Shown: in pieces, positions 23,473-39,122 of the stretch
How the letters are laid out: every line of letters starts with the position of its first letter
How positions within the stretch are numbered: position 1 is the stretch's first letter
Assembly (NCBI GenBank): GCA_963706025.1
Contig: CAVPLM010000010.1
Span: 1-64,000 of the forward strand
Direction of reading: 5' to 3'
DNA: 64,000 nucleotides
From: an uncultured Actinomycetes bacterium
GTDB lineage: Bacteria > Actinomycetota > Thermoleophilia > RBG-16-64-13
Notes under the pieces: model-generated
Seen by the model: only the letters and a program-made list of their open reading frames with translations
Told to the model about the DNA's origin: nothing
The model's database searches: none
Made by a program: the position numbers and the translations under genes

Positions 23473-23483
23473 ACGTGCTGATC

Positions 23484-23510
23484 GGGGGATTCGAACCGCC
23501 GGCGCCGCTT
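23484..23510 (-). repeat. Degenerate tRNA-Ser T-arm/variable-arm fragment (att-like copy G)
   Basis: gggggattcgaaccgccggcgccgctt = 24/27 match to the repeat at 30268-30294. Confidence 0.65.
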
Positions 23511-24615
23511 AGCTGGACTGGTCCTCGTGAAGTATGCGCAGGCCCTCCTGGCGAAAGGTAATCCGAACCATGTTGCCTTGCCGCAGATCGAGTGATTGGT
23601 AGTAGTAGGTCGCTCCCCTTGCCTCCAATTCGTAGCCATTATCTAGTACCAGCCGAATGACCCGTATGCGATGCCCGTCATCGACGTTCACCACTGTTGC
23701 GTTCAGTTGGTTAGCCGCCAGGCTGCCCAACACAGGCCGGTCTGGGTAGAGCAACTTGATGTCTTCGGGAGCGATATAGACAGGAACGCTGTCGCCTGCG
23801 GCACAGGGTTGAGCGGGCGCGTGCAGCATGAGGCCGTTCCAATCGAGGAGGATTCCTCCGGCGGCCGCGTTTACCACACGTGCGTAGAAGATATTGCGCA
23901 CGCCCAGCACCCTGGCCGCATTCATGCTTGAGGGTCGGCGAAAGACATCAGCCACCGAGCCGACCTGCTGGAGTCCGCCGTCTTGCAGCAGTGCCACTCG
24001 ATCTCCCAGAGCAAACGCGTCCTCTGCATTGTGGGTGACACATAGAACGATGAGGCGTCGCTCAATCTGAAGCGTGCGCAAGTCCGATCTCAATCTCTCC
24101 CTGAGTCCGGTGTCAAGCGCGGAGAAAGGTTCGTCCAACAATAGAACTTCAGGATCCCGGGCAAGCGCCCGGGCGATTGCTACTCTCTGCTTTTGGCCGC
24201 CGGAAAGTTGCCGGGGATACCGGTCGGCCAACTGATCCAAACCCATCTGACTGATCAGCGCGAATGCTTTTTCGCGTGCCGCCGAATCGCGGCCGAGGGC
24301 ATAGCGGATATTCCCGAGGACGGTGAGATGGGGAAACAGCGCATATCCTTGGGACACGTAGCCGATGCCGCGCTTCTGGGGAGGCATATTCGTGTGCGGT
24401 CTTCCGTCTCCTCGCCGGAAGAGTACGCGCTCGTCCAAGACGACCTCCCCGCGGTCTGGCGTAACCAGGCCGGCGATTGACTGCAGAGTCATAGACTTGC
24501 CGGACCCAGACGGACCGAAAAGAACAAGTACCTCTTCGCCCATTTCGAAGCGCAGATCCAGGGTGAATGGGGGGAGTTCCCGGTGAATGCTGACCCGGAG
24601 ACAGCGCTCGCTCAT
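23509..24615 (-). CDS. modC: Molybdate ABC transporter ATP-binding protein with TOBE-like C-terminus
   Basis: GPSGSGKS, LSGGQKQR, LLLDEPFSALD; adjacent to modAB. Confidence 0.88.
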   Translation of the reverse strand: MSERCLRVSIHRELPPFTLDLRFEMGEEVLVLFGPSGSGKSMTLQSIAGLVTPDRGEVVLDERVLFRRGDGRPHTNMPPQKRGIGYVSQGYALFPHLTVLGNIRYALGRDSAAREKAFALISQMGLDQLADRYPRQLSGGQKQRVAIARALARDPEVLLLDEPFSALDTGLRERLRSDLRTLQIERRLIVLCVTHNAEDAFALGDRVALLQDGGLQQVGSVADVFRRPSSMNAARVLGVRNIFYARVVNAAAGGILLDWNGLMLHAPAQPCAAGDSVPVYIAPEDIKLLYPDRPVLGSLAANQLNATVVNVDDGHRIRVIRLVLDNGYELEARGATYYYQSLDLRQGNMVRITFRQEGLRILHEDQSS

Positions 24616-24755
24616 TTGCTCATGCCGGCATCAAGGGGGCCGACGATCACGACTTTGGTCAAGGTGCATCCAGTGAGATTGCGCGACACGTAATTCCTCG
24701 TGCCGCTATGGTCCAGGTTCTGATGCCATCGACGTTCCCTCTCGCCTTCGCGCAG

Positions 24756-24885
24756 GGTTATCCGCCGAGCAGTATAACGGGCAAAGAGACCTGAGAACAC
24801 CCAGACTTCGTACGGCCACACGTGCCACTGTCTTGGAGCACTTGCAGTCGTGCCGGGTCACCGTTATACTTCGCGAAGTATACCC
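24756..24885. promoter_or_regulatory. Two oppositely oriented ModE-like boxes in the modC/modA divergent region
   Basis: CGTTATAC-N8-GTATACCC (24862-24885, contains perfect 18-bp palindrome 24865-24882) and minus-strand CGTTATAC-N8-GGATAACC (24756-24779). Confidence 0.6.
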
Positions 24886-24907
24886 CTCGTCCTTGAAGGA
24901 GTCGTCC

Positions 24908-25813
24908 ATGCATCACAGGTTTCACCGAAGCCCCCTGGCAGCGATTGCGCTCGCGGTTCTGCTCGTTCTCCTCTTCGCGGGCCTCGCAGCCTGCGGCTCA
25001 GAATCGACCACGACCACAACGGCGGCGCCGACCACGACAGCGGTCGTATCCTCGGAAACCACCGCTCCCCCGACCACCGAGGCAAGCACCACTTCCTCTA
25101 CGGCTGCGGCGGTGCAGGAATTGACGGTGTCTGCCGCGTCGAGCCTCAAGGGCGCCTTCACCGAGATAGGCAAGGCGTTCGACCAGGCGAACAACTCGAA
25201 GACCACCTTCAACTTCGACGCTTCGGGCACCTTGCAGAAGCAGATCGAGGCCGGCGCCCCGGTGGATGACTTCGCCTCGGCGGCCATGAAGCAAATGACC
25301 GCCTTGCTCGATCAGAAGCTCGTTGACGAAGCCTCGGTCAAGGTCTTCGCGAGCAACGAGATCGTGCTTGTCGTGCCGGCGGACTCCAAGCTGGGGATCA
25401 CCAGCTTCCAGGATCTGGCCCAAGCCGATGTGAAGAAGATCAGCTACGGCGATCCGAAAGTCGCTCCCCACGGGGTGGCCGCGGAGGAGATCCTGAACAA
25501 GCTCGGCTTGTTCGATCAGGTCAAGCCCAAGGTCATATATGCTGCCAATGTCTCAGCGGCTCTTGCGTACGTGTCCAACGGGGAAGTCGACGCGGGCATC
25601 ATCTTCGCCACCGAGGCCGTGGCCGGAGGCGACAAAGTGAAGATCGTGGCCACCTCCGACCCAAGCTGGCACGGTAAGATCGCCTATCCCATAGGCGTGG
25701 TGTCGGCCAGCAAGAATAAGACTCCGGCTCAGGCGTTCGTTGACTTCGTCGTGGGCTCCGAAGGCCAGAAGATCCTGCAGAGCTACGGGTTCTTAGCCGC
25801 CCCAGCCCAGTAG
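24908..25813 (+). CDS. modA: Molybdate ABC transporter substrate-binding lipoprotein
   Basis: Lipobox LAAC, Thr-rich linker, SAASSL..AF, ASGTL.KQIE.GAP.D, YV..GEVDAG; GAAGGAG RBS. Confidence 0.92.
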   Translation: MHHRFHRSPLAAIALAVLLVLLFAGLAACGSESTTTTTAAPTTTAVVSSETTAPPTTEASTTSSTAAAVQELTVSAASSLKGAFTEIGKAFDQANNSKTTFNFDASGTLQKQIEAGAPVDDFASAAMKQMTALLDQKLVDEASVKVFASNEIVLVVPADSKLGITSFQDLAQADVKKISYGDPKVAPHGVAAEEILNKLGLFDQVKPKVIYAANVSAALAYVSNGEVDAGIIFATEAVAGGDKVKIVATSDPSWHGKIAYPIGVVSASKNKTPAQAFVDFVVGSEGQKILQSYGFLAAPAQ

Positions 25814-25908
25814 AGGCGATCGGCCCACGCGAGGAGCAGAAGAGAGAGCACCGACATGAGGGGCCGCTCTCTCCTGCTTCTTTCGCCGGTCCTGAAAGGC
25901 AGGTTATC

Positions 25909-26580
25909 GTGAGCATGCTTTTCCCGTTGCGTCTGTCACTGCAGGTCGCGGCCTGCGCCACCGTGATCACGCTGATCGTGGGCATCCCCCTCGCTTACGT
26001 GCTGGCCCGCAAGCGCTTCAGGGGAAAGGACGTGCTTACCCTGATCCTGACCCTGCCCATGGTGCTCCCGCCGACGGTGACCGGCTACTTTCTCTTGCTT
26101 CTAATAGGAAATAACGGTCTCCTCGGTAAGGCATTCTTCTCCGTCACCGGGCACGAGCTTGGAATTGTCTTCACCTGGTATGCGGCAGTGATCGCCTCGT
26201 TCGTGGTGTCTTTCCCTCTCATGTTGATCACCGCCCGCGCCTCGATGAAGGACGTTGACCAGGAGCTCATCAACGCCTCGTACATGTTGGGCCGGTCCGA
26301 GATCGATACGGTGCTGCGGGTGGTCATCCCTCTATCCGGCAGAGGAATCATTGCCGGTGCCACTCTGGCTTTTGCCCGGGCCATGGGTGAATTCGGGGCG
26401 ACGATAATGGTGGCAGGGAACTGGCCCGGCAAGACCAACACTATGCCGATTACCATCTATACGGAAACGCTGTACGGATCGTGGCGGAACGCTCTGTGGA
26501 TGGTGCTCCTGTTCGTCGCCGTCGCGGCCGTCGTGATGTACGTCTCCAATCGGATGGGGGAGAAAGCGGTGAAAGCGTGA
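25909..26580 (+). CDS. modB: Molybdate ABC transporter permease
   Basis: LPMVLPPTVTG, FARAMGEFGAT...AGN.PGKT.T. Confidence 0.93.
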   Translation: MSMLFPLRLSLQVAACATVITLIVGIPLAYVLARKRFRGKDVLTLILTLPMVLPPTVTGYFLLLLIGNNGLLGKAFFSVTGHELGIVFTWYAAVIASFVVSFPLMLITARASMKDVDQELINASYMLGRSEIDTVLRVVIPLSGRGIIAGATLAFARAMGEFGATIMVAGNWPGKTNTMPITIYTETLYGSWRNALWMVLLFVAVAAVVMYVSNRMGEKAVKA

Positions 26581-27455
26581 GTTCTTGCCCAGTGCCCACC
26601 CCCGTCGCATACCGTCTGCCGGACGAGGAGATTGACCGGTTTCTTCGGGAAGACTGTCCCTACGGTGATCTCACTACGACTCTCCTTCAGATCGGGATGA
26701 GATCAGGCCGCATGGTCTTCGCCACTCGTCATGAGACCGTGCTGTGCTGCACCGAAGAAGCGGCGCGGCTCCTCGAAAGACTGGGGTGCACCGTGACAGC
26801 CGCAGAACCGAGCGGCACCTGGTTGGCCGAAGGCCAACCATTCCTGGAGGCGAGCGGGCAGGCCGGCTCCCTTCACATGGGGTGGAAAGCCGCGTTGAAC
26901 CTGCTGGAGTCCGCCTCGGGGATAGCGACGCGTACCCACGTGCTGGTCCGGACGGCACGAGCCTCGAACCCGGCCATCGAGGTGGTGGCCACCCGTAAGA
27001 TCTTCCCCGGCACCAAGGCCGTCGCGACCAAGGCGGTATATGCCGGAGGCGGGCTGCCGCACCGGCTGGGTCTTTCTGAGACCGTGCTCGTTTTCGCACA
27101 GCACGTGGCTTTTCTTGGAGGGCCCGAGGACCTGTGGCTTCGTCTGCCGGCAATCAAAGATCGGGCGAGAGAGAAGAAGGTTGCAGTAGAGGTCACCGAT
27201 CAGACTAACGCGTTGGCTGCCGCTCTCGCCGGAGCCGACATGGTCCAAGTAGACAAGATGGGGCCCGAGGATCTGCGCACACTCGTCCAGGCTCTCCGAG
27301 GCGTGGCGCCGAGAGTGGTCGTCGCCGCCGCAGGTGGCATCACCGAGGAGAATGCGAGCGCGTACGCTGCGACCGGAGTTGATCTGCTGGTCACCTCCGC
27401 TATGTATTGGGGAAAGCCTGCGGATATTGCAGTCAGCATGGAGGTGACAGACTAA
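26577..27455 (+). CDS. modD: ModD protein (NadC/QPRTase-like)
   Basis: ED.PYGDLTT, WK...NLLE..SGIATRT, TRK.FPGTK, HRLGLSET, AAGGI, PADI.V. Confidence 0.88.
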   Translation: MSSCPVPTPVAYRLPDEEIDRFLREDCPYGDLTTTLLQIGMRSGRMVFATRHETVLCCTEEAARLLERLGCTVTAAEPSGTWLAEGQPFLEASGQAGSLHMGWKAALNLLESASGIATRTHVLVRTARASNPAIEVVATRKIFPGTKAVATKAVYAGGGLPHRLGLSETVLVFAQHVAFLGGPEDLWLRLPAIKDRAREKKVAVEVTDQTNALAAALAGADMVQVDKMGPEDLRTLVQALRGVAPRVVVAAAGGITEENASAYAATGVDLLVTSAMYWGKPADIAVSMEVTD

Positions 27456-27601
27456 GCGTCCTCACCTATCGCTTGGTTTCCTTCCTGCATTCTGCCGTCG
27501 TCCAGACCGAATTCCCCACTGCGGACCCTCCCCATAGGTGAGTCATCGCGGCGGCTGTCATGTGCCGAGTACGCGCCATCTCCTGACGAGGGAGGTCGAT
27601 A

Positions 27602-27946
27602 TTGAAGTTGGAATGTGAGATCTGGCTGACCGAGACTAGGCGAGCCTTTGACCCCGCATGTGTGCGGATCCTCCAAGCCGTCGAGCGAACAGGATCGCTG
27701 CACAAGGCCGCAGCCGAGCTGCGCATTTCGAACAGCTCGGCCTGGCTGATCATCAACGCCGCCGATCAAGAACTCGGCTTTCCCCTCCTGGAACGCAGAG
27801 TCGGCGGAAAGCGGGGTGGTGGCTCCTCGCTGACACCAGAAGGGCGGAAGCTTCTCAGGCGATACTCAGCCGCACAAGTCGAGGTGCAAGCGCTCTTGGC
27901 GGACCTATTCAATCGGCACTTCCCGGAGTGGCGAAAGCTGGGCTGA
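27602..27946 (+). CDS. ModE N-terminal winged-helix regulator
   Basis: L.AVE.TGSL.KAA..L.IS...AW..I, GG..GGGS.LT.EG. Confidence 0.85.
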   Translation: MKLECEIWLTETRRAFDPACVRILQAVERTGSLHKAAAELRISNSSAWLIINAADQELGFPLLERRVGGKRGGGSSLTPEGRKLLRRYSAAQVEVQALLADLFNRHFPEWRKLG

Positions 27947-28113
27947 CCAACGAATAGCGTCATCCGAGCGCAAGCAGACTGACCGAGTATGGAGCCTTGG
28001 TCCTGCAACGGGAAGCCGATAGGACCGAACGCCTTGCGCGAAGCCTTCAGGCACTTCCCGGAGTGGCGAAAGCTGGGCTGACCAACGAATAGCGTCATCC
28101 GAGCGCAAGCAGA
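27915..28113 (+). repeat. 64-bp perfect direct duplication (27915-27978 and 28050-28113)
   Basis: ggcacttcccggagtggcgaaag...cgagcgcaagcaga present twice, 71 bp apart. Confidence 0.92.
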
Positions 28114-28300
28114 TCCGTGGCATGATCTTCGGCATGGGCAATGCTCGCATCTGCTGCATCTGAATCGGCCCCTCAAGCTGGTCAGTGAACGTTTCGGGCA
28201 CAGTAGTGCTGCAGTCACCGCCGACCTGTACGGCCACATACTGGAAGGTCAAGAGCGCAGCTGTGAACCTGCTGGACGAGGCAATGGGGAAGGCGCAAGA
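27995..28300 (+). pseudogene. Tyrosine recombinase (integrase) C-terminal remnant
   Basis: CNGKPIGPNALREAF, then from 28121 HDLRHGQCSHLLHLNRPLKLVSERFGHSSAAVTADLYGH (H-x-L-R, GH, catalytic Y at 28229), then frameshift to AAVNLLDE; no N-terminus. Confidence 0.85.
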
Positions 28301-28459
28301 GTCCACTGGGGTGTCATCCCAAGCGGCTGTCGCGTCGGGTCGGTCGCGTCGCGTCAGTGTCGCGTCAGAGAATGGCGACAGAATCACCACAAAGCATCCG
28401 AACAGCGCTTCCTTGCGAGTAGTGTCGAAGGATTTCGCTCAAGAACTCCCTGCACAAGG

Positions 28460-28501
28460 CGGAGGGGTCGGGATTCGAACCCCCGGTACCGCTTGCGCGG
28501 C
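28460..28501 (-). repeat. tRNA-Ser 3' fragment (att-like copy F, TGA/CGA hybrid)
   Basis: Shares the 32-bp core gggattcgaacccccggtaccgcttgcgcggc with copies at 30261, 35446, 35750; acceptor side resembles tRNA-Ser(TGA). Confidence 0.88.
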
Positions 28502-28577
28502 CCGGCATGAAGAGAGCGGAGGCCCCGAAGGACCTCTGCCAAGGTAGGCCGGCAAGCGGTCGAACCGCGCGTCCTGC

Positions 28578-29222
28578 TCAGCCGCCGGAGGGTAGGCTCA
28601 CCCACACCGCCCCGTCCCATTCGCCACCCAACTGGTCCCCACCCACGCCGACCAGCCCTGCTTTCCAGGTCGCCACAGAGTTGACCTACTGGTCGTCGGG
28701 TCCGCCGAACACGGCCTCGTCATGAGGAACGCGGGTCCAGGTATACCCATCGGCCGATACCCACACGGCCGCATCTGAATCCACCCAGCCCACGGCAGGC
28801 GAGCCCTTCGGGTCGTCCTGGCCCACGGCAACCAGGTCGGGCCCGCCCACGGTCACCGAGTTAATCAGCTGTATGCCGGTCCCGCCGAGGACACCCTCCT
28901 CGTCGGGTACGCGCTCCCACGTGTAGCCGTCGGTTGACACCCACACCGCCGCATCAGCCTCGCCACCGAATTCGCTCCCGCCCACGACGACCAGTCCCGG
29001 CCCGCCCATCGCCACGGATTTAACCACCTGCATGCCCGCTCCACCGAGAGCGCCCTCCTCGTCGGGAACCCGGGCCCATGCCAGCTCCGGACCCGGAACT
29101 GCCACAGTGACGGCCTGGGTGGTGGTCGTCGTGTCCTCACCTGTGCAGGCGGCCAGAACCAGCACCACAGCGAGCAGGGCAAGGATCAGCGCCGCAATTA
29201 GGGCACTTCCCTTGGGCTTCAC
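28578..29222 (-). pseudogene. Repeat-containing lipoprotein with in-frame TAG at 28686-28688
   Basis: Lipobox LAAC, poly-Thr, three W.RVP.E...GG...Q...SV...GLV.VG...DAAVWVS repeats; third repeat continues in frame past the TAG. Confidence 0.7.
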
Positions 29223-29459
29223 CGGACCGCCACCTCCTTCTCGGGCAGGCTAACGAAAAGAGGAGCCAGGCGCGCGTGTGAACTCGCGTAAGGCCCCTCT
29301 CCGGCGGCCCATCCGAGCTATAGATGAGGGGAGCTACTTACTCCCCGCACAGGTTCAGTATTGGCCGGCTTGGCTGCGCGTCAATCGAACTGATGCCACC
29401 GGTCCAAAGACGCCGGGCAGGCCATTCTGGCGCGGGATGCTTCTCCGTCCGTCTCGTTC

Positions 29460-29545
29460 CCTTCGCTGCTGCCTTCGCTGCTGCCGCGTTTGCCCCCGAC
29501 TTGCCCCCGAACTCGCCCGAAAGACCGTAAAACCCGGCGTCCTTG
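29460..29545. repeat. Arm-type repeat block (copy E) without a tRNA fragment
   Basis: ccttcgctgctg x2, then ttgcccccga x2 (11-bp period) and actcgcccgaaaga, matching flanks at 30169, 35354 and 35658. Confidence 0.8.
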
Positions 29546-29609
29546 GGCCGAGCTTCGCCGAAGCGGTCAGGAAGTGACGTGCGCCGCCACCCTGTGCGGT
29601 GGCCGAGGG

Positions 29610-30056
29610 TTACACCTCTTCGAGCATGGTCGTGAACAGATCGTGATGTTCTTCCTCGTCTTCGAGAATCTCTTTGAACATGAAGGCCGTCGTTACGTCG
29701 TGTTCCTTCGTCGCCATCTCGATGATCTGGCGATACATCTCAACGGCCTCCACCTCTGCCTTTGCATCGAGTTCGAGGAACTCCTTCAGGGTGTTCCCAA
29801 CCTCGATCGGTGCAGGCTTGGTCGTGGGCGTGCCGCCGAGATACCAGAGCCTCTCAGCGATCTTCTCAGCATGCTTCATCTCCGCGATGGCGGTCTCTTG
29901 GAACACGTCCCTGACGGCCACGCCCTTCACGCCCACGACCTGGACATGCTGCCACATGTACTGGACGCTTACCTGGATCTCCCTGGCAATCGCACCGTTT
30001 AGCAGTGACTTCAACTCGTCGCTCACTTTGGTCACTGGCTCCAATGAAGCGGCCAT
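29610..30056 (-). CDS. Ferritin-like (bacterioferritin-type) protein
   Basis: LN.AI.RE, E..HAEKIAER...LGG.P, E.EA...Y, IL.DEEEH diiron ligands. Confidence 0.88.
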   Translation of the reverse strand: MAASLEPVTKVSDELKSLLNGAIAREIQVSVQYMWQHVQVVGVKGVAVRDVFQETAIAEMKHAEKIAERLWYLGGTPTTKPAPIEVGNTLKEFLELDAKAEVEAVEMYRQIIEMATKEHDVTTAFMFKEILEDEEEHHDLFTTMLEEV

Positions 30057-30168
30057 CTCACACCCCTTTGCTCTCGTTGACATCGGCCGGTGTTTTGAGT
30101 ATGTACCCAGGCCACATCAGGAAGACACTTGTTCCGTAGCGGTATGCTGCTGTTCCTTGGTGACGAGT

Positions 30169-30303
30169 TTGCCACCGACTTGCCCCCGGACTCTCTCCAA
30201 AGACGCGAAAACCCGGCCTCCGGGGCCGGGCTCTGACATGCCATCTTTGGCTTTCCTAAGCGGAGAGGGGGGATTCGAACCCCCGGTACCGCTTGCGCGG
30301 CAC
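30169..30303 (-). repeat. tRNA-Ser 3' fragment (30261-30303) plus arm-type repeats (att-like copy D)
   Basis: 55 bp identical to copy B (30247-30301 vs 35736-35790); ttgccaccga/ttgcccccgg pair at 30169 and 30180. Confidence 0.9.
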
Positions 30304-30354
30304 GTGACGGCAAGAAGCCACCCCAGCTGCGAAGGCTTGGGAGCAACCACCCAG

Positions 30355-30382
30355 AAAGGGCCGTCCTTGGGGACGGCCCTTT
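30355..30382. terminator. Intrinsic terminator-like hairpin
   Basis: aaagggccgtcc-ttgg-ggacggcccttt perfect 12-bp stem. Confidence 0.7.
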
Positions 30383-30580: not shown

Positions 30581-31749
30581 CTACCGCATCCCCACCGCGG
30601 GGGTGCCTCTCTCCACGCGCATTTGGCGCGCCTTCCGTGGTTGCTTCACGCCGAAGAGGAACCGCGTCACGCTTGTCCTCCTGACCACGACCTCGTAGAT
30701 CAGGAACGTGCGGCGAAGGAGGCGGGCACGATGATGAGGTAGCTCGCCACCGCTCCCAGGTTCCACTGCATCACGAAGTAGGCGATCAAGGCGATCGGCA
30801 CCCAATGCAGGATGTAGAAGGGGTAGGAAGCCTGGCTCAGGTAACGGAGCGCCCTGCTGTCTGCGTTCAAGTAGCGCTTCCCGTAACTCAGCATGGTGAC
30901 GATCACCAGCGTTGCATTGATCATCGCCAGCGGGCCGAGCACCCCGTACATCCAGGGCTGCAACTCGGCGCCCTCGGCGATGCCGTACCCGACGACGATC
31001 GAGACCATCGTGGCCATCACCGGCACCATCAGGGCGAGGGCGACCTTCCCGTTCCGCTCGATCGCTCGTCCGATCCGCGGGTCCGAGAAGGCGAGGAAGC
31101 CGTAGACGAAGAAGGCGATGAGAAGGAAACGCGCTGCGTCGTTGTCGTTAGGGTTGGGCATCACGCGGCGCACCATCTCGAGGAGTATCAGCGGCACGAA
31201 GAAGAGGACAAGGCCGCCGCGGCGCTCGCAGAGGCTGCCTAGACGTGCCGTGAACCGAGAACCCCTGGGCGTCCTCAGGTACAGGAATAACGGCAGCGTC
31301 ACGAGCGAGAACAGGAAGAGGTACAGGATGAACCACAGGTGGCCGAATGGGAACCGGGCGAGCATAGGCAGGTAGGTTCCGAAGAAGCTGCCGTGGTAGT
31401 CCTCCCTGTTCACCGCGTACAGGTAGGAGAGGATCGGCAGGACGGCCACGATGCCGAAGGCGAGCGGCACCAGCAGGCGCTTCACGCGTTCGCCCAGGTA
31501 CCGGCCTGGCGACCGGCGGCCGAGGGCGAGCCAGACGGACGCGCCCGCGATGAAGAACATCAGCGGCATAAGAAATTCGCCGAAGAACGTCGAGACCGCC
31601 ACGATACCCGTGTTCGGCGGGCCCTTCACGACGCTTCCCGCGTTAACCGTGAAGATCGTCGCCGTATGCATGAAGACGAGCATCATTACCGCAAGCGTCC
31701 GCAGCCAGTCGATGTCGTGGCGCCGTTGAGTGTCCACTGCGGATTTCAT
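30581..31749 (-). CDS. Acyltransferase-3 (OpgC-like) membrane protein (frameshift near 30710)
   Basis: RRHDIDWLR, MPL.F.IAG, R.KRLLVP, HLWF..YL, ASYPFYILH; C-terminus FLIYE..RR....RFLFG in the next frame. Confidence 0.88.
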
Positions 31750-31759
31750 GACCTACCTC

Positions 31760-32167
31760 CTATGTCCGATCCGATTCACGATTCGTCTCATCAGCCAGGG
31801 GGCGGATGGCCCCCAGAAGCTCCAGCAGCGGCGCGCCTTTTACCACGAAGGCATCGAAGCCGGCGGCATGCGCCTGCAACCTGTCGAGTTCGGTGCAGTG
31901 AACGGTAAGGGCGGCGATACGGCACCCGGCGAGGTCGGTCTTGATGCGCGTGGCGGCGGTGTAGCCGTCGAGGACCGGCATGGCGAGGTCCATGATCACG
32001 ATGTCGGGGTGAAGGGCGCGCGCCTGCTCAATTGCCTCTCGTCCATTCCTCGCCTCGCCGACGACCTGAAAGTCGCCGACCACCTCAAGGAAGACGCGAA
32101 GGTCTTGACGCACGTCGGCCACATCGTCGACGATTAGGACCCGAGTCTTTGAATCTTGCTTGAACAT
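31760..32167 (-). CDS. Single-domain response regulator receiver (NarL-like REC)
   Basis: LIVDD, VVGEA.NG, PD...MDL.MP.LDG, no HTH. Confidence 0.85.
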   Translation of the reverse strand: MFKQDSKTRVLIVDDVADVRQDLRVFLEVVGDFQVVGEARNGREAIEQARALHPDIVIMDLAMPVLDGYTAATRIKTDLAGCRIAALTVHCTELDRLQAHAAGFDAFVVKGAPLLELLGAIRPLADETNRESDRT

Positions 32168-32274
32168 GCCCGCCTCCGATGGCGTAGATCACGTTTCAAG
32201 CATGACGCCGATGAAGGCGCGGCACATCGATCCGGCGATGTATTTACCGGTGGCCAGCAGGACGGTTTTTCTGT

Positions 32275-32312
32275 TACGACCGGAGGCCTATGCGACTACG
32301 ACTTAGGACCTA
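32275..32312. promoter_or_regulatory. Putative NarL/LuxR-family operator pair
   Basis: TACGAC-N4-GGCCTA (32275-32290) and TACGAC-N4-GACCTA (32297-32312), imperfect palindromes with a 22-bp period. Confidence 0.45.
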
Positions 32313-32466
32313 TCCCGGTAGGCATGTTCTGCTGCGGCCGGCTGCAAAGGCCATGGGCCGTGTCCTCGGAGCAAACAGTCCTCAACGTACCTATCGGTAC
32401 GCCTCTGGGCTGTTTGCCCCTCGATCCTTGCCCATGTCCTTTTCGCTCGGTCTCGCTGCGAACAAC

Positions 32467-33279
32467 CTACCGGGATAGGTCCTTAGGTCTGAGATCGGCG
32501 ACGAATGCCCGCATTCGCGCGAGCGCTTCCCTGGTGAGTTCTTGTAGCAGCGCGAGCTGCTCCTGTACCCCTTCGGGCTCTGTTCGGCGCATCAGTTGGG
32601 CAGAGCGGACCGTGAGCAGGATGCTAAACATGGCTTGGGAAACCGAGTCGTGCAACTTTCGGGCCAGACGGTTGCGCTCTTGCAGAGCCGCCAGTTCGTC
32701 CGCTTGGGCCGCACGCCTCTTGAGTTCGGCGTTGGTCCTCTCCAACTGCGCGAGCATCTTGTCGCTCTCGCTCTTTGCCGCTTCGATCTCCTGGCCGGCG
32801 ATAGCCAGGGCGGCCATGGCCATGCCGATGGCCATCGTGGTCAGAGCCAAGCCGAGCCCCTCGAGTGGACCCGCGAAGATCATCAGAGATACACCGATGA
32901 GGGCGACGCAGACGGCGATCCACAGCCAGCGGAACCACCCTCTGAAGACCATCGCCGCCTGGTAAGCAAGGAGCACGAAGAGGCCGGTCACGTAGTCGAA
33001 CTCCGGTCCCAGGGCGAGCAGCGCCAAGACGATGGCAGATTGTACGACGAAGATGAGGTGGAGCAACGGCGGGTGTCGACTCGGTAGCACCCACACCAGT
33101 GAAAAGAGGGCGAAGAACACGACCAAAAGCGCGACAAACCAGGGGAAACGCGCACTGTACTCGATTGAGATGAGTAGTCTCGCCGCGAGACCTACTCCGG
33201 CCAGGTAGATGACGACAAGCACCACCCGCGGCCAGACGCCAATGTCAGTCAGCTTCGGCAAGACCGTTGCGGATCGCAA
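32467..33279 (-). CDS. Membrane sensor with HisKA_3 domain, lacking HATPase domain
   Basis: TM region, ERNRLAR.LHDSVSQ..FS, ends after AL..MR..V..LRP. Confidence 0.8.
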   Translation of the reverse strand: MRSATVLPKLTDIGVWPRVVLVVIYLAGVGLAARLLISIEYSARFPWFVALLVVFFALFSLVWVLPSRHPPLLHLIFVVQSAIVLALLALGPEFDYVTGLFVLLAYQAAMVFRGWFRWLWIAVCVALIGVSLMIFAGPLEGLGLALTTMAIGMAMAALAIAGQEIEAAKSESDKMLAQLERTNAELKRRAAQADELAALQERNRLARKLHDSVSQAMFSILLTVRSAQLMRRTEPEGVQEQLALLQELTREALARMRAFVADLRPKDLSR

Positions 33280-33961
33280 AGATGGCCAGTTGAGTGCGGT
33301 CCTTGAGTCCTAGCTTGGCCAGGATATGGCTGATGTGCGTCTTCACCGTCTTCTCGCTGATGTAAAACTGACTGGCGATCTCCCGGTTGCTCTTGCCCTG
33401 GGCGACCAATCGGATGACCTCTCGCTCGCGGTCGGTCAGATCGCCCGCAGGTGAGCCTCGATCTGCCGCCGAGGACGGCGCCGAGTCGGCATCCGTGTCG
33501 GGGCCCGAGGGCTCTGGGGCCCGCATGGCTTCCATCAGCTTCCGGGCCACGTCAGGATGCAATCGCGGCTCCCCGCGGGAGGCCGCACGTACGGCGTCGA
33601 CTAGTTCATCGGGGGAAACATCTTTGAGAAGATAACTGGAAGCGCCCGCCTGGATGGCGGGGAACACCTGGGCGTCTTCGGCGAAGCTCGTCAAGGCGAT
33701 CACCCGAGTGTGGACGTCCATCTCCATGATCTGTTTGGTAGCGGACACACCGTCCAGCCGGGGCATCATGAGATCCATCAACACGACATCCGGCGCCGTC
33801 TGCCGCACCATTTCCACCGCCACCTGCCCGTCGGACGCCTCTCCAACAACCGCCATGTCCTCGTGCAACTCGAGAAAAGTGCGTAGCCCTTGACGGACAA
33901 TCTGATGATCGTCCACGATGAGTATCCGGATCTTCTCGCCCTCGATCTCGTGCGTGCTCAT
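33245..33961 (-). CDS. NarL/LiaR-family response regulator (REC + LuxR HTH)
   Basis: VDDH.IVRQGL, LT.REREV..L.A.G.SN.EIA, KTVKTH.S.IL.KL. Confidence 0.93.
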   Translation of the reverse strand: MSTHEIEGEKIRILIVDDHQIVRQGLRTFLELHEDMAVVGEASDGQVAVEMVRQTAPDVVLMDLMMPRLDGVSATKQIMEMDVHTRVIALTSFAEDAQVFPAIQAGASSYLLKDVSPDELVDAVRAASRGEPRLHPDVARKLMEAMRAPEPSGPDTDADSAPSSAADRGSPAGDLTDREREVIRLVAQGKSNREIASQFYISEKTVKTHISHILAKLGLKDRTQLAIFAIRNGLAEAD

Positions 33962-35196
33962 CTCCCACCTCTCTGGCCTAAAGATCGCTGGACCACGACC
34001 CGCGTCCCCTGCCCCGGTGCACTTTCCATTTCAAAGACCCAGCCTATTTCGGCGGCGCGTTCGCTCATGCTCGCCAATCCCATGCCCGTCCCATCCACTG
34101 CGTTCTGAGGGTCGAAGCCTCTTCCCTGATCCCTAATCTCGAGCCTAGGTCTGCCTCCCAGGCGAAGAAGGATCGTTGCCTGAGACGTACCGGCATGCTT
34201 GACGACGTTGTTGAGTGCCTCCCGGGCGATGCGAGCGAGGGCGGTTTCCTCCGCGGCCGACAGCGGCTCGGTGTCGGCATCGAGCGGCTCTTCCTGGACA
34301 TCGAACGAGACGCTGACGCCGTCACTCCGTCGCCGATCCACATCGCGACGTATTGCTTCGACCAGACTCCCGCCGCCGATGGCGTCCGGTTTGAGCTCTG
34401 AAACGAGGAGGCGCATCTCAGCTAGCGCGCTCTCGGCCAACTGACGGAGGCGCTCGAGCTGCTCATCAGCTTTCGATGGCTCGCGTCGTAGGAGGATGGC
34501 GGCAGACTGGCTGGCCAGTGTCATACTGAAAATGGTCTGGGTGACGGAGTCGTGTAGCTCGCGGGCCACCCGGTTGCGCTCTTCGGCCACAACAAGGCTC
34601 TCTACTCGCTCCAGATACTCGGTGAGTTCGGCGTTCGTCATCTCCAACTCGTGGCCCAGGGCCTTGTTGCGAAGGCGCGCCTGCTCGGCCCGGCGCGTCG
34701 CGAACGCATACAGGCCAAGGAAGACGTTGACGGCGGTGTAGACGAGAGTCAACGTCATCGCTTGGGGAAGCTCGTAGTCCCCGAGGAAGGCGAAGAGCAT
34801 AAGAGGTATGAACGCGACCAGCCACAAAGCCCCAAGCCGGCCGAAACGCTGCAGCGCCTGCATGGAGAGGACAGCGAACAGGACGGCGAAGAAGTCCTCA
34901 TCTCCGGGGAGGAGAAACAGGCCAACCACGATGCCTATCTGCAGGACCATGTAGAGAATGGACCACGTCCCCCATCTCTTGGAGATCAACGGTTCACTGG
35001 CAAAGAACACCAGCCAGGCGAGTAGCAGTAGCAACGCCTCGAGCAGGACCGTGCCGTCCTCGAGCACTAGCACCGAACGTAGCACCACACCGGCAAAAAG
35101 GAGTCCGGCGGAGGCATAGAAGACCCAGATGTACGACCTGTCGGAAAACGGGCTCATGTACGGGTCCCAGCGTTGGTGGCGGTTGATGATCATCAT
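33958..35196 (-). CDS. HisKA_3 sensor histidine kinase
   Basis: EERNRVARELHDSVTQ, EALNNVVKHA, D.G.GF, GMGL.SM.ERA, S.PG.GT. Confidence 0.92.
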   Translation of the reverse strand: MMIINRHQRWDPYMSPFSDRSYIWVFYASAGLLFAGVVLRSVLVLEDGTVLLEALLLLLAWLVFFASEPLISKRWGTWSILYMVLQIGIVVGLFLLPGDEDFFAVLFAVLSMQALQRFGRLGALWLVAFIPLMLFAFLGDYELPQAMTLTLVYTAVNVFLGLYAFATRRAEQARLRNKALGHELEMTNAELTEYLERVESLVVAEERNRVARELHDSVTQTIFSMTLASQSAAILLRREPSKADEQLERLRQLAESALAEMRLLVSELKPDAIGGGSLVEAIRRDVDRRRSDGVSVSFDVQEEPLDADTEPLSAAEETALARIAREALNNVVKHAGTSQATILLRLGGRPRLEIRDQGRGFDPQNAVDGTGMGLASMSERAAEIGWVFEMESAPGQGTRVVVQRSLGQRGGR

Positions 35197-35353
35197 AGTC
35201 CAGGACCGTGGATGGAAGAAGCGGCCACGCCTTGTTTAGCCTCGGCGATCAGGGGGTCGCTTTGGCGTATTTGCTGGCGCCGGACCACCATTCCGCGTCT
35301 AATCTGTTCCAGGACCGGTCTGTGCTGTTGTGTGCTGTCTGATGGTGCCGACT

Positions 35354-35445
35354 TTGCCCCCGACTTACCCCCGAACTCGCCCGAAAGATGTGAGAGGCTC
35401 GACCCTGGCGGCCGAGCCTCGCCTCAGGAAACCCCTGCAAATGAG
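35354..35445. repeat. Arm-type repeat flank of att-like copy C
   Basis: ttgcccccga/ttacccccga (11-bp period), actcgcccgaaaga, and acccctgcaaa shared with the flank of the intact tRNA-Ser. Confidence 0.8.
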
Positions 35446-35525
35446 CGGAGAGGGGGGATTCGAACCCCCGGTACCGCTTGCGCGGCAGAACGGTTTTCGA
35501 GACCGCCCCACTAAGCCGCTCTGCC
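35446..35525 (-). pseudogene. Pseudo-tRNA-Ser(CGA) lacking the 5' acceptor strand (att-like copy C)
   Basis: Minus strand ggcagagcggcttagtgg-gcggt-ctCGAaa-accgt-long variable arm-GGTTCGAATCC-ctctccg; 5' GGAGAGG absent. Confidence 0.82.
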
Positions 35526-35629
35526 GGCGGGGGCTTGGCGCTAGCTCACGGCGCACCGGGCATGATGCCTCGTGTCTTCGCGTCCACCTTCGTCCATTCG
35601 TTGCGTGCGATGACTGCCTCACGGTTTCT

Positions 35630-35790
35630 GCTCCCTTTCGGCTCCCTTTCGGCGTCTTTGCCACCGACTTGCCACCGAACTCGCCCGAAAGACGCAAAAA
35701 CCGGGCTTTTCGGACCGGGTCTCGACACACGATTCTTGGCTTTCCTAAGCGGAGAGGGGGGATTCGAACCCCCGGTACCGCTTGCGCGGC
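35630..35790 (-). repeat. tRNA-Ser 3' fragment (35750-35790) plus arm-type repeats (att-like copy B)
   Basis: gctccctttcg x2, ttgccaccga x2, actcgcccgaaaga, then the shared tRNA core. Confidence 0.9.
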
Positions 35791-35913
35791 TCCGGTCACA
35801 ACGCGGTTTCTGGGATGAAAGCTGGCCCTTGCAGAGCTTGCCACGTTCATCGACCACCTGCGCGCTATAGAGGAACGGAGACTCAAAGAGCCCTGGGTTC
35901 CCAGAGGTTACGA

Positions 35914-38700
35914 CTAGACATCCGTGACGGTGAGCACCATGGTGTCGGAGCCGACGCCCCCATTGTTGTCCGTTACGGTGAAGGTCACCACGTACAGACC
36001 AGGTGTGGTCAATCTGATCATCTCAGCCACCTTCCCAAGTGAGGTGGCTGTCGGTTCAGTCACTATCAAGTCGACCGTGAGCCCATCCACGTAGGCCAGG
36101 GCTGTATGGGTGTCGGAAGCATCGGCATCTGTAAAGTTGGCGCCCAGTGGGAAGAGGGAACCCGCGGTCACGCTCTTGTCGAGACCCGCGTCGACAACTG
36201 GGGGATGATTGGATGAAGGAGGAGTGCCCCCGATCCGGGCGAGTACGTTGTAGAGCACCTGAGCCGTCTCCCCGCGCGTGGCCACCCTCCACGGATCCCA
36301 AGAAGGTCCGAAGCCGACCAGTCCGGCCAGGAGCCCGTTGTACTCGGCCATCTGCATGTTGCGAGCGTGATCGAGGCTGAAGTCACCCAGTGTTCCGACA
36401 TAGCCCGCGGGTGGATCCGTCAACACGCCGGGGCGCAGATTCTGCACGGCTCTCACCGTCATGGTGACCACCTGGGCGCGTCTGATGCCCACATACGGGG
36501 CGAAGGTAGTCGCCGTCTGCCCTCTGGTGATGCCGGCGAGATAGGCGTTCGCCACGTACTCGTGCGGGTAGAGGCTGTTGACGACGCCTGGACCGGGCAG
36601 TATGTCGGGACCCAGGTCGGTGAAAGGCACCGCAGGGTCGGGCCAATCGTCCTCCAGCACCAGAAAGCCAATGACCCCGCAGATCATCTTGGCGAACTGG
36701 GCACGATAGACGCTGTTATCGGGCCGGAACTCCCAGGTATCTCCGACCTGGTAGCCGTCGATGATGTGGGCGTCGCGCATGCCGTTGATGGCATCGTAGT
36801 AGGGGTGTCCAGACGGAACATCGGTGAAAGGCGTTGGATCAGGGGTATCGCTTGGTATCAACTCGATGGTGTCGCTGACCAGCCCGTCTCCCGCCACGTG
36901 GCCATGGACGTCCTCGAAGCTGCACCACACGGTCTTGATTCCCAGCCCAGTGGTCAAGGTCCACGACTTGGTAGCCGCGTAGGGCTCCCAGGCCGACCAG
37001 GTAGTGCCGTCGTTGCTGAATCGCATCCGCATGAGGGGTGAGCCGTCGGTCACTGTGTAGGTGAGCGTGACGGTGGTCGAGTCGGTCTGGGCCGCACCGC
37101 CATTGATCGTGAAGCCGCTGATGACCGGGCTGATGCGGTCCACGTATACCACCGGCTGATCGGTGCTCGTTTGCGAGTTGCCGGCCAGGTCCAGAGCACG
37201 GGCGTAGATCACGTGACCCACCCCGGCGTCCTCTACCGGGAGGCTCCAGTCGTAGTGCCAGGTGGCCAGCGGGGTCCCTGCACCCGAGTCGATGGTGGCC
37301 TCCTGCCAGGGCCAGCCATCGATCGACACCTGCACCGACGTCACGCCGACGTTGTCGGTCGCTGTGCCGGAGATCACGGCCGGCGACACGCTCAGGACTG
37401 CGCCGTCGGCAGGAGCGAGGATCTCCGTCATCGGCGGCTCGACGTCATGCGTGGCCACGAATATCTCCCAGTCACCCCCGGCGTCACGGCCCTGCCACAC
37501 CACCGCTTCGTTTCCCAGCCGAGGATACCGGTCGTCATAGGGACTGTTGCTCAGGTTCACCACTTCGCCGGTGGGGGCGTCGCCGGGTGGGAGATAGACG
37601 TATACCTGGGAGACGCCCGGGCCACCGAACCAGACCGCCCCACGACCGGTGACGTCGGTGGGCAGATCATTCGCCGTGTTGTTGGTGAGCGTGGCGTCTT
37701 TCCAGATAGGACTGACGGGCGTCCTGGTGGCCAGTCGCACCTCCCAATCGGTGCCGTCGTAGTACCGCCAGCCTATCGTGGTACCCATCGCCGAGACATC
37801 TATGAAGGGCTCCGAGTCGTTCCGCGTGTTGTTGGTCAGCTTGGTCGTGACACCGTCGGAGCGGTAGAACACCTCCGAATCCCCGTCGTCTTGCCCCTCC
37901 CAGACGATCTGGTGCTCGCTGATCTCCGGGAAGACATCGTCGTAATCGTTATCGGTGACCCGGCGGACCATGGACCCGTCCCAGTACTGGATCTCGAAGT
38001 CGAAACCCGGATCATGGATGGATTGAATCTGCCAGACGACCCATGACCCGTCGGTCTGAGGGTGGCTTATTTGACCATGGTCGCCCACGACCGATTGGAG
38101 CGTGGCCGTAGCGATGTCGTAGACGTACACGAGGTCGAGGACAAGGGACGTATCATGGCACACCCACACCACCAGGTATCCGTGGATCTGTACCTGAGTG
38201 TCGTCATAGGTGTTGTCGGTCAGCTTGGTGGTGAGGCCGGTGGAGAAGCGGTGCAGGTAGATCTCCCAATCTCCGTCGGCATCTCGGCCTTGCCATACAA
38301 CAGCGTCTCCACAGATCTTCGGGTATGCTTCGTCAGTAGCGTTGGATGTAAGCTGCCTGCCTAGGCCAAGCCGATAGTTCCAGGCCCATATCTCCGAGTC
38401 TTGGCCCGCAGGCTTCTGTTGCCACACGACTACCGGGTTGGTGGTGTCAATGTCGGGCCATTCGTCGGCTGCCGCGTTGTCCGTGATCTTGTTGAGAGTC
38501 CATCCAGCGGGTCCGCCCTCTATGGCCGAGGCGGGTGTCCCCGATAGAAGAACGGCCGTCACGGCCAGAAGCAACGTAGCCGTAAACACCAAGAGACGGT
38601 GAACTGCTTCCGGTACTGCGGGGGGCGTCCTCATGCTCAGCCCTATCGGGATCTTGGTATGCTGCTTCAGTCGAAGCATCCGTCTCTCCCTTCCTGGCAC
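35914..38700 (-). CDS. Secreted S-layer homology (SLH) domain protein with beta-propeller-like repeats and Ig/PKD-like domains
   Basis: Signal peptide; repeated LT.N..DD..P.I....VVW.G.D.D.EI; Ig-like SGTATDNVGV; FTDVP..HPY..AI, RAQFAKMI, TRGE.AQ SLH motifs; start uncertain. Confidence 0.85.
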   Translation of the reverse strand: MPGRERRMLRLKQHTKIPIGLSMRTPPAVPEAVHRLLVFTATLLLAVTAVLLSGTPASAIEGGPAGWTLNKITDNAAADEWPDIDTTNPVVVWQQKPAGQDSEIWAWNYRLGLGRQLTSNATDEAYPKICGDAVVWQGRDADGDWEIYLHRFSTGLTTKLTDNTYDDTQVQIHGYLVVWVCHDTSLVLDLVYVYDIATATLQSVVGDHGQISHPQTDGSWVVWQIQSIHDPGFDFEIQYWDGSMVRRVTDNDYDDVFPEISEHQIVWEGQDDGDSEVFYRSDGVTTKLTNNTRNDSEPFIDVSAMGTTIGWRYYDGTDWEVRLATRTPVSPIWKDATLTNNTANDLPTDVTGRGAVWFGGPGVSQVYVYLPPGDAPTGEVVNLSNSPYDDRYPRLGNEAVVWQGRDAGGDWEIFVATHDVEPPMTEILAPADGAVLSVSPAVISGTATDNVGVTSVQVSIDGWPWQEATIDSGAGTPLATWHYDWSLPVEDAGVGHVIYARALDLAGNSQTSTDQPVVYVDRISPVISGFTINGGAAQTDSTTVTLTYTVTDGSPLMRMRFSNDGTTWSAWEPYAATKSWTLTTGLGIKTVWCSFEDVHGHVAGDGLVSDTIELIPSDTPDPTPFTDVPSGHPYYDAINGMRDAHIIDGYQVGDTWEFRPDNSVYRAQFAKMICGVIGFLVLEDDWPDPAVPFTDLGPDILPGPGVVNSLYPHEYVANAYLAGITRGQTATTFAPYVGIRRAQVVTMTVRAVQNLRPGVLTDPPAGYVGTLGDFSLDHARNMQMAEYNGLLAGLVGFGPSWDPWRVATRGETAQVLYNVLARIGGTPPSSNHPPVVDAGLDKSVTAGSLFPLGANFTDADASDTHTALAYVDGLTVDLIVTEPTATSLGKVAEMIRLTTPGLYVVTFTVTDNNGGVGSDTMVLTVTDV

Positions 38701-38916
38701 GAACCTGACCGAACCGCGATGGACTCCTGCCCCGCTGGATCAATGGTGCTTGAGATGAAGCGCCTTTGAAGGAGGCCGGACTCGAAGTTGGGCGTCTACC
38801 CCAATCCTATTACCATGCGTGGTTCAACGCAATGTTCAGTCGGCTTGGGGCCCGCCGAGTATGTGGAATGCTTGTCGTCTTGTGTCCTTGTGTCCGTCTC
38901 GCACCCATGAGTGCTG

Positions 38917-38967
38917 TCAGCAACGATTTCAGCAACGATTTCCTCCGGTGCCAAAATGGTGCCAAAA
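38917..38967. repeat. Paired short direct repeats (arm-type sites) downstream of tRNA-Ser
   Basis: tcagcaacgatt x2 (38917-38940) and ggtgccaaaa x2 (38947-38967). Confidence 0.8.
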
Positions 38968-39035
38968 CCAGGCCTGAAGGTCGTTGGCGGCCAGACTAGC
39001 TAGATTATCTGCGAGTAAAACCCCTGCAAACAAGG

Positions 39036-39122
39036 CGGAGGGGGCGGGATTCGAACCCGCGAGACCTTGCGGCCTGCCGGTTTTCAAGACCGGTGCGATC
39101 AACCAGACTCCGCCACCCCTCC
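39036..39122 (-). tRNA. tRNA-Ser(TGA)
   Basis: GGAGGGG acceptor stem, ccggt-ctTGAaa-accgg anticodon arm, long variable arm, GGTTCGAATCC, discriminator G. Confidence 0.95.

Follow-up and report, generated by a model that had tools for sequence, protein, structure and literature searches.

The window analyzed here is a 64,000-nt stretch of contig CAVPLM010000010.1 from an uncultured Thermoleophilia bacterium (own genome labelled G000; all position numbers without a contig name refer to this stretch). In it, a tRNA-Ser(TGA) gene heads a series of unrelated cargo genes that are separated by repeated modules containing fragments of a serine tRNA. The reading that we prefer, with a probability of about 0.6, is that these repeats, and longer arrays of them elsewhere in the lineage, are attachment (att) sites from tyrosine-integrase elements that were reduced to integrase-free units resembling cis-mobilizable elements (CIMEs) and then reshuffled and exchanged. 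The original prediction for this DNA had proposed an integron-like capture platform in which integrase-free cassettes are stacked at a tRNA and moved in trans, and our analysis partly supports that interpretation. All genomes used are metagenome bins; G001, G002, and G003 belong to the same genus as G000, and G007, G011, and G019 represent three other genera.

ARAGORN found two tRNAs in the window, one of which is the tRNA-Ser(TGA) at 39034-39122 on the minus strand (Rfam score, 58.4 bits). Two families of repeats had been claimed to recur behind this gene, a co-oriented 32-bp core and paired arms with an 11-bp period, and both are there. The core occurs as four exact copies (no mismatches), all on the minus strand (28470-28501, 30270-30301, 35455-35486, and 35759-35790), where 100 shuffles gave an expectation of 0.00. 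The paired arm motif also occurs four times, at 29490, 30169, 35354, and 35658 (expected, 0.00), and its copy at 29490 stands alone, with no adjoining tRNA piece, as had been claimed. A repeat-finder run on the window recovered the same core and arm families, and Rfam returned only tRNA-like matches for the tRNA fragments, all below threshold. A further, degenerate copy predicted at 23484 was ambiguous: a T-arm motif is present at 20 of 23 positions (23484-23510), but no acceptor or module lies behind it, and we estimate that chance alone would give about 0.15 such hits across the genome. The fragments had also been taken for copies of the neighboring tRNA-Ser(TGA). This was incorrect, as tRNA-Ser(TGA) contains no match to the core even when three mismatches are allowed. 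The window fragments match tRNA-Ser(CGA) exactly over its variable arm, T arm, and acceptor, and the bin carries intact copies of that gene on contigs C7 and C8, not on the window contig.

Because the tRNA-Ser(CGA) on C7 is followed by the same linker, hairpin, and arms as the window copies, the repeat is a module of about 200 nt. It begins with the tRNA 3' part (from the anticodon loop onward in the longest copies) and continues with a box, GGAAAGCCAAGAA; then come a GC-rich hairpin that includes a short run of T, the repeat TCGCGTCTTTCGGGCGAGTTCGGGGGCAAGTCGGTGGCAAAC, and, about 30 nt beyond that, GACGGACGCAAA. Modules are 150 to 200 nt long and 80 to 90% conserved in sequence, with variation confined to the hairpin. 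Of the four hairpins in the window, two are strong, one of them with a wholly different sequence at the same place; the other two fold no better than shuffles, and a simple terminator scan called none of the window module hairpins. A search profile was built from 16 own-genome copies, and homologous arms were found by blastn. Across 11 array stretches (C11 excluded), the 130 hits comprised 57 full modules, 25 with the tRNA part only, 39 with the arm part only, and 9 other forms, at a median spacing of 1923 nt (quartiles, 968 and 3184 nt); the spacing was below 400 nt in 9 of 119 cases. Judged by sequence, the repeats resemble the att sites used by tyrosine integrases that target tRNA genes, and the 11-nt direct repeats are the predicted arm sites of the integrase. 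The window is laid out as follows, from the tRNA-Ser(TGA) toward lower coordinates.

39034-39122, minus strand: intact tRNA-Ser(TGA), head of the variable insert (ARAGORN, Rfam)
38892-39033, minus strand: TGA-type downstream arm region, with no integrase behind it
39021-39029, minus strand: TTGCAGGGG box within the TGA-type arm region
38947-38967, minus strand: two copies of TTTTGGCACC within the TGA-type arm region
38919-38942, minus strand: two copies of GAAATCGTTGCT within the TGA-type arm region
38892-38898, minus strand: GACGGAC box within the TGA-type arm region
35914-38700, minus strand: cargo 1, a 928-amino-acid (aa) surface protein with Big_7 and SLH domains (Pfam)
35634-35796, minus strand: module 1, full, with a tRNA-Ser(CGA) 3' part, a weak hairpin, and paired arm repeats
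35297-35524, minus strand: module 2, with a near-complete pseudo-tRNA-Ser(CGA) that lacks the 5' acceptor
30700-35196, minus strand: cargo 2, a HisKA_3 kinase, a LuxR-type response regulator, a truncated kinase, a receiver-only regulator, and an acyltransferase_3 protein (Pfam)
30130-30308, minus strand: module 3, full, with a strong hairpin (-22.8 kcal/mol, z -3.1)
29610-30083, minus strand: cargo 3, a ferritin-like protein (Pfam)
29411-29557, minus strand: module 4, arm-only, with the hairpin region and arms but no tRNA piece
28686-29222, minus strand: cargo 4, a 178-aa putative lipoprotein with internal repeats
28456-28506, minus strand: module 5, hybrid, with a CGA-type variable arm and 5' T stem, TTCGAAT, and a TGA-type 3' T stem, acceptor, and TTGTGCAGGG box
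28329-28366: three GACGCGAC repeats between the integrase remnant and the hybrid site
28082-28366, plus strand: C-terminal remnant of a tyrosine integrase (28082-28300), convergent on the hybrid site
22450-28081: rest of the variable stretch, with a formamidase-like gene, modC/modA/modB, a QRPTase-like gene, and noncoding debris
23484-23510, minus strand: weak T-arm-like match with 3 mismatches in 23, a possible relic or chance

The tRNA-proximal 10.6 kb (28.4 to 39.0 kb) thus comprises four cargo units and one empty unit separated by modules, the empty unit being the gap of only about 110 nt between modules 1 and 2. Behind its pseudo-tRNA, module 2 has a proximal box of the TGA type, then a strong but different hairpin (-23.5 kcal/mol, z -3.0), and finally arms of the CGA type.

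The copy at 28456-28506 bears directly on how such sites recombine. Its left half is CGA-type, and its right half and the sequence downstream are TGA-type; the switch falls precisely in the T loop, where the CGA and TGA tRNAs share just about 13 nt. On this sequence, the site fits a crossover within TTCGAAT between two tRNA-Ser sequences, and we infer that the crossover position of these sites lies in the T loop. The intact gene at the head of the insert also carries a trace of integration. Its T stem reads GCGGG/CCCGC against AGGGG/CCCCT in G001, G002, and G003, a set of compensatory changes, and its T stem and first downstream bases equal those of a tRNA-Ser(TGA) copy on contig C23 of G011. 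That copy is followed by the same proximal box, a short arm region, and a convergent integrase with one stop. The paired T-stem differences, together with the identity to the G011 copy, indicate that an element supplied the 3' part of the window tRNA-Ser(TGA), leaving the gene intact as expected of tRNA 3'-end regeneration. Intact integrases of the same family (400 to 480 aa) are found in relatives convergent to the 3' ends of tRNA-Phe, tRNA-Met, tRNA-Glu, tRNA-Arg, and tRNA-Lys. The proposal that the repeats are att sites therefore held up, given the tRNA 3' part with its arms, the hybrid junction in the T loop, and these convergent integrases. Head and fragments agree in the main arrays (C7, C8, contig C70 of G064, and the metagenome loci), where a tRNA-Ser(CGA) precedes matching fragments; they disagree in the window, where a TGA head precedes CGA-type fragments and one CGA/TGA hybrid.

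When the repeat was searched for in the own and related genomes, as had been suggested, the module proved to be lineage-wide. The profile gave 132 hits: 50 in the own genome, 36 in G001, 17 in G003, 14 in G007, 8 in G011, and 7 in G019. The own-genome copies are distributed over C8 (18), C7 (8), C5 (6), C10 (5), C18 (5), C3 (5), and C11 (3). All copies within every array point in the same direction, C11 being the sole contig with both directions, in copies 23 kb apart; the longest array has 36 copies over 91 kb, and one array is embedded in a 3.56-Mb contig. Query matches were obtained in 33 of 41 genomes (40 relatives and the own genome), and the more distant genomes match the tRNA part only, which we read as empty sites. 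The arm repeats are kept across at least four genera (g1, g5, g9, and g17). In public data, real modules are held by 24 of 123 loci among the matches listed for an 18-nt arm pattern, the rest being chance matches, whereas a 23-nt pattern gave 61 metagenome loci, 60 of which have modules (109 in total). None of these loci has modules on both strands, and an intact tRNA-Ser(CGA) stands at a module in 13. The named public records with real modules are bins from metagenomes, and their labels read Gaiellaceae, Gaiellales, Thermoleophilia, or Actinomycetota. On our preferred reading, the module belongs to a family of tyrosine-integrase integrative elements, which would have built long co-oriented arrays headed by tRNA-Ser(CGA) in this family of Thermoleophilia.

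The tRNA-Ser(CGA) heads on C7 (19263-20191) and C8 (40357-41288) have homologous upstream PIN-domain genes (73% DNA identity), and each leads its own array; with a bin contamination of 7.3%, this suggests that the bin may hold two related organisms. On C8, an insert of about 190 nt (41288-41480; 7288-7480 of locus L149) separates the 3' end of tRNA-Ser(CGA) from a duplicate of the last ~18 nt of the tRNA. Within this insert is a T-arm-like stretch in inverted orientation; the insert has no Rfam match and exists in three or four copies (also C8 75653, C11 71960, and C3 5993). A dispersed repeat of about 165 nt, inserted in the module linker at C8 ~41480-41645, has matching ends and the look of a miniature inverted-repeat transposable element (MITE); it recurs at 72 to 76% likeness, in both directions, at 20 or more other places on C3, C5, C11, C22, and C27. 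ARAGORN also called tRNA-Ser genes at C3 831195-831285 and C5 563061-563146 that are unlike the other serine tRNAs and are probably false.

Comparison with the relatives of the same genus revealed that the window from 22.5 to 39.0 kb is a strain-variable insert at tRNA-Ser(TGA). The backbone of G000 is colinear with those of G001 and G003 at 81 to 85% identity (74% in one block). From the end of the chloride-channel gene to tRNA-Ser(TGA), the window holds 16.6 kb and G001 only 2.9 kb, with unrelated content; G002 and G003 have other content there, with a gene abutting the tRNA in G002 and, in G003, a CGA-type module that follows the tRNA after 1.2 kb, 8 kb before the end of the contig. The insert is thus present or absent at one and the same tRNA in different strains, and G001 and G003 carry the mod/QRPTase cluster elsewhere, on other contigs. 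The expected differences in order and content were found both at this tRNA and in the main arrays. For example, if the blocks of C8 are lettered A B C D E F G H in sequence, G001 has them as F G A G C E B H D, and units adjacent in one genome lie tens of kilobases apart in another. Among 25 blocks shared between arrays of different genomes (at least 85% identity over at least 450 nt, with nested hits and same-genome pairs dropped), 24 keep their array-relative direction. Block ends are enriched at the repeats: in a set of hits with at least 80% identity over at least 400 nt, 49 of 152 ends lie no more than 100 nt from a module, compared with 10% of random array places. Several shared blocks are about 94 to 96% identical against a backbone at 81 to 85% (blocks of 4423, 2759, 720, and 2979 nt at 94.4, 95.1, 95.6, and 93.9%, respectively), which points to exchange after the lineages split. 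In G003, we also found a module-bounded tandem duplication of 2967 nt at 99% identity.

The cargo of the arrays is mixed, with transporters, regulators, surface proteins, methyltransferases, oxidoreductases, a NifU/IscS/TusA set, and a MoxR set, and multigene units are common. An unusual accessory cargo is a full-length glutamyl/glutaminyl-tRNA synthetase that forms a single unit between two modules of the G001 array (L005, 7838-9304). Window units 2 to 4 lie between modules and contain no recombinase, an arrangement of the CIME type that most units elsewhere share. Co-orientation of cargo with the repeats, which had been reported for the window, holds there but not in the arrays of five relatives, where 81 of 153 open reading frames (ORFs) of at least 100 aa are co-oriented; these ORFs come from a home-made rule based on GC content at third codon positions (GC3) that misses or mis-strands some genes and, for example, mis-called the QRPTase gene. 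Without a direction bias in the relatives, the co-orientation in the window is a local feature. Most of the predicted window cargo was verified by Pfam (SLH/Big_7, HK-RR-HK-RR-acyltransferase, i.e., alternating histidine kinases and response regulators, ferritin-like, and mod/ABC/QRPTase). Homologues of the ferritin-like protein lie inside the G003 array (79%) and in another genus, G007 (84%). The 178-aa ORF of cargo 4 has what we take to be a lipoprotein-type N terminus with a lipobox motif. In cargo 2, the second histidine kinase, behind HisKA_3, is truncated by a 185-nt insert (32302-32486). This insert occurs once in the genome, its ends are 21-nt inverted repeats (95% complementary), and the stop codon of the kinase lies inside the left repeat.

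The prediction that the small units lack an integrase was supported for nearly all of them. With ten intact family integrases as tblastn queries, traces were detected in 5 of 12 array stretches (C10, C18, C3, C5, and G001), and those that were read are frameshifted or truncated; none were detected in the arrays of C8, C7, C11, G003, G007 (28 kb, with no integrase), G011, and G019. Among the 60 metagenome loci, 5 hold partial copies, and in one locus (L218) the open N-terminal part of an integrase runs off the end. G003 has at least 17 modules and just two tyrosine recombinases genome-wide, both Xer-like. The integrase remnant predicted in the window is real, although only a C-terminal piece, and it is all the integrase that the window holds (28082-28300, plus strand). 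Perfect 64-nt direct repeats lie beside it, 135 nt apart (27915-27978 and 28050-28113), with no further copy in the genome.

We found an integrase tied to CGA-type modules in three contexts. A pseudogene of it lies in the first unit of the G001 array; a frameshifted copy abuts a module on a metagenome contig; and on contig C70 of G064, in a related genus, an ORF that stays open for 309 aa to the contig end is 78% identical to the G001 pseudogene and sits some 2.1 kb downstream of a tRNA-Ser(CGA) that is intact and accompanied by three modules. At three loci (L004 2932-3441, L227, and L234 ~980-1200), a conserved small ORF (starting MAKSYKLTE or MAKTYKLTE) comes right after the stop of the array-linked integrase and may encode an accessory recombination factor. 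The first G001 unit, with its frameshifted integrase, also contains a tyrosine recombinase of about 200 aa that consists of the catalytic domain only (L004 6370-7017; Pfam E value, 5e-40). The closest intact relative of the C18 remnant (contig C10 of G071, 77%) has no tRNA or module within 5 kb, and intact relatives of the array-linked integrase in G076 and G072 have none in the stretches examined. A serine recombinase was set aside as the missing enzyme: G000 and G011 have none, and G001, G003, and G007 have one each, away from the arrays.

We propose the following history for the arrays. Elements would have integrated repeatedly into the regenerated tRNA/att site, and loss of integrase and backbone genes would then have left att-flanked, integrase-free, CIME-like units. 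Excision, re-insertion, and exchange of these units between genomes would have followed, driven by an integrase from another source or by module-to-module recombination. The window array may have reached tRNA-Ser(TGA) through a crossover in the T-loop sequence common to CGA- and TGA-type sites, which would have left the hybrid site at 28456-28506 beside the integrase remnant of an older TGA-type element.

Several observations weigh against this reading of the arrays as att sites of reduced, exchanged elements. One of the 25 shared blocks is inverted, and 103 of the 152 block ends have no detected module within 100 nt. Where the same cargo occurs in two genomes, the flanking modules differ both in type (full, tRNA-only, or arm-only) and in sequence, and the match, about 94% within the cargo, drops to background exactly where the cargo ends, at either edge. 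The arm part therefore does not travel with the cargo, and a model with a single T-loop crossover does not fit. An intact integrase beside a module was not detected in the own genome or in the 60 metagenome loci, and no integrase lies within 2 kb of the modules in the 24 module-bearing genome loci among the matches listed. The search for an integrase next to the same arm yielded the candidate in G064, but that ORF is cut off by the contig end. A helper phage or plasmid was sought without success: 10 viral contigs carry the arm motif, none with a module, tRNA, or integrase match, and the 31-nt tRNA piece is found in no viral contig. The predicted excision circles joining adjacent att copies were not seen in the short Logan contigs of 4 of the 20 sequencing runs that hold part of the stretch. 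Apart from one 114-nt skip inside cargo 4, joints in these contigs fall at the repeated modules, with sides of 18 to 30 nt and in some cases other letters between them; none of them is interpretable as excision. A joint at 29460-30157 in two runs, which would drop the ferritin unit, was set aside because its side lengths are not shown, and uneven coverage of cargo units across runs was not used as evidence. Because all of the genomes are bins, integrases could also sit on unbinned plasmids or phages, and contigs could be mis-joined at repeats.

As a single T-loop crossover does not fit, what remain are reassortment of the modules by frequent recombination or conversion among copies, or exchange points at the module edges. 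In one case, two cargo blocks abut without an intervening module. Among 111 distinct module instances, 7 pairs share a flank at 93% identity or more, mostly through duplications inside one array; this is too few to tell a fixed from a spread-out crossover. The cassettes may still be mobile. The stronger claim, a working capture platform in which integrase-free cassettes of about 2 kb with a tRNA-Ser att module are excised and re-inserted at any module in trans, is possible but doubtful; the helper integrase would then be carried on a rare element or have been lost from most bins.

The best-surviving alternative is that the arrays are fossils, that is, old tandem islands whose integrases have been lost and whose modules now serve merely as homology for RecA-dependent shuffling, with no present site-specific movement in trans. 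Deletions, duplications, circles that re-insert, and the uptake of module-flanked foreign DNA would then create the shuffled order. Modules of 150 to 200 nt that are 80 to 90% alike would suffice for homologous exchange, which could account for flanking modules that are reassorted relative to cargo and for the coexistence of three module forms. Integrases are missing or broken almost everywhere, the G003 tandem duplication lies between modules, and the kept orientation of shared blocks is what direct-repeat recombination predicts. However, after a crossover inside a module, the portion of the donor module nearest the cargo should have come along with it, and in the inspected junctions identity stops at the cargo edge. 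Moreover, the CGA/TGA hybrid switches exactly in the T loop, with only ~13 nt shared, and the conservation of the arm repeats in at least four genera suggests a protein partner under selection. On balance, we judge fossil arrays to be an unlikely explanation, if still a serious contender, and the decay of larger elements is likewise in play.

A second alternative, that the module is an intergenic repeat (a terminator, regulatory unit, or MITE-like sequence derived from the tRNA-Ser(CGA) tail) that spread in a plastic region, seems improbable. It would accommodate the 39 of 130 copies that have arms and no tRNA piece, the hairpin that keeps its place in the modules while its sequence varies, and the presence of other small dispersed repeats in the genome. 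Such a repeat should not, however, be strictly co-oriented over up to 91 kb whatever the gene direction, be confined to arrays, or be headed by tRNA-Ser(CGA) on C7, C8, contig C70 of G064, and 13 metagenome loci; integrase remnants and a hybrid tRNA junction in canonical att geometry also argue against it, as do the two of four hairpins that are no better than shuffles and the absence of a terminator call in a simple scan. An assembly or binning artefact, with chimeric joins at repeats and an unreal cassette order, is scarcely credible even given the 7.3% contamination, the homologous C7/C8 heads whose 73% identity suggests two organisms, and public contigs that break at modules, because the architecture recurs in 12 array stretches of six genome bins (once inside a 3.56-Mb contig) and in 60 metagenome loci, and shared block ends are reproducible across assemblies.

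Our preferred reading, arrays of att sites around reduced and exchanged units, places them among several known systems. Williams reportedly described tyrosine-integrase islands at tRNA genes in 2002 (the Islander/TIGER type). Tandem genomic islands formed at tRNA genes by tyrosine integrases are also described in the accessible portion of PMC4383910. The arrays share with tandem islands an intact tRNA at one end, co-oriented 3' fragments at the borders, an element-supplied tRNA 3' end, and family integrases beside tRNA 3' ends. They differ in that the units have a median of ~1.9 kb, nearly all lack an integrase, and number up to 36 per array; in that the repeat is about 200 nt and not a short core; and in that the window fragments derive from another tRNA-Ser isoacceptor than the anchor.

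CIMEs and site-specific accretion are known from streptococcal and Streptomyces integrative and conjugative elements (ICEs), as outlined in the part of PMC5704250 available to us. Like the units here, CIMEs as presented there are att-flanked and tandem and have lost their integration and transfer genes; they can be moved only by the integrase of another element, as the array units may be. Known CIMEs occur singly or in small numbers, as decayed elements next to an ICE or an integrative and mobilizable element (IME), whereas we see tens of tiny units and recognized no ICE or IME. Prochlorococcus tycheposons, in the accessible text of the preprint (bioRxiv 10.1101/2020.12.28.424599), number one or two per genome, most have an integrase, and the integrase is tRNA-specific. 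Their islands, as that text presents them, resemble our arrays in being hypervariable next to a tRNA, in having adjacent elements split by a partial tRNA, and in containing scattered integrase fragments and partial tRNAs; they differ from the dense arrays, near absence of integrases, long conserved arm module at each fragment, and actinobacterial host found here. An active tycheposon would pair a tRNA-specific tyrosine recombinase with a module for replication or packaging; no active element was recovered here. Thus, the concept is not wholly new, and in what these sources offered, CIMEs with tandem accretion and tycheposon islands are the closest precedents. We found no published description of such arrays in Gaiellales or Thermoleophilia, supplementary files aside.

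Integrative elements are thought to require their own integrase. In a 2026 preprint on six nosocomial species, the portion available to us states that such elements are almost never below 4 kb and that 92% of att-delimited islands have an integrase no more than 2 kb away. Throughout the bacterial family studied here, att-bounded units of about 2 kb occur by the tens and integrases are almost absent; species share the units in shuffled order and at higher identity than the backbone. Even if the units are immobile, the arrays record the decay of islands to bare cargo between att scars and are a caution for tRNA and island annotation tools.

Integrase-free cargo between recombination sites, with the recombinase encoded elsewhere, is also characteristic of the pdif/Xer modules of Acinetobacter plasmids. 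The likeness extends to the site-bounded cargo described here, and G003 keeps just two recombinases, both Xer-like. Xer-dependent modules have 28-nt dif-like sites to which XerC and XerD bind, whereas the array sites derive from a tRNA and are all directly oriented. Chromosomal integrons have an intI/attI/Pc head, attC palindromes, and long co-oriented arrays of small unrelated cassettes. The arrays likewise contain co-oriented small unrelated units between repeated recombination sites, and strains share units in a different order. An integron-type head was not borne out: no intI/attI/Pc was seen beside the arrays examined, and Pfam found no recombinase upstream of the tRNA-Ser(CGA) genes of C7 and C8 (PIN-domain gene) or at the head in G007 (dehydrogenase, cupredoxin), although no integron-directed search was made. 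In contrast to attC, the site is a sequence-conserved (80 to 90%) tRNA tail with direct repeats and not a folded palindrome, and in contrast to integron cassettes, which are mostly single, promoterless, and co-oriented, units may be multigene and run in either direction (81 of 153 ORFs co-oriented). Integrons are therefore alike in outcome, and every defining feature of theirs that we tested was lacking. If the units do move in trans, a large share of the accessory genome of this lineage would be explained as an integron-like pool of exchangeable genes built from tRNA att sites, and the integron problem would have been solved a second time, by independent evolution, in little-known Actinomycetota of soils and sediments.

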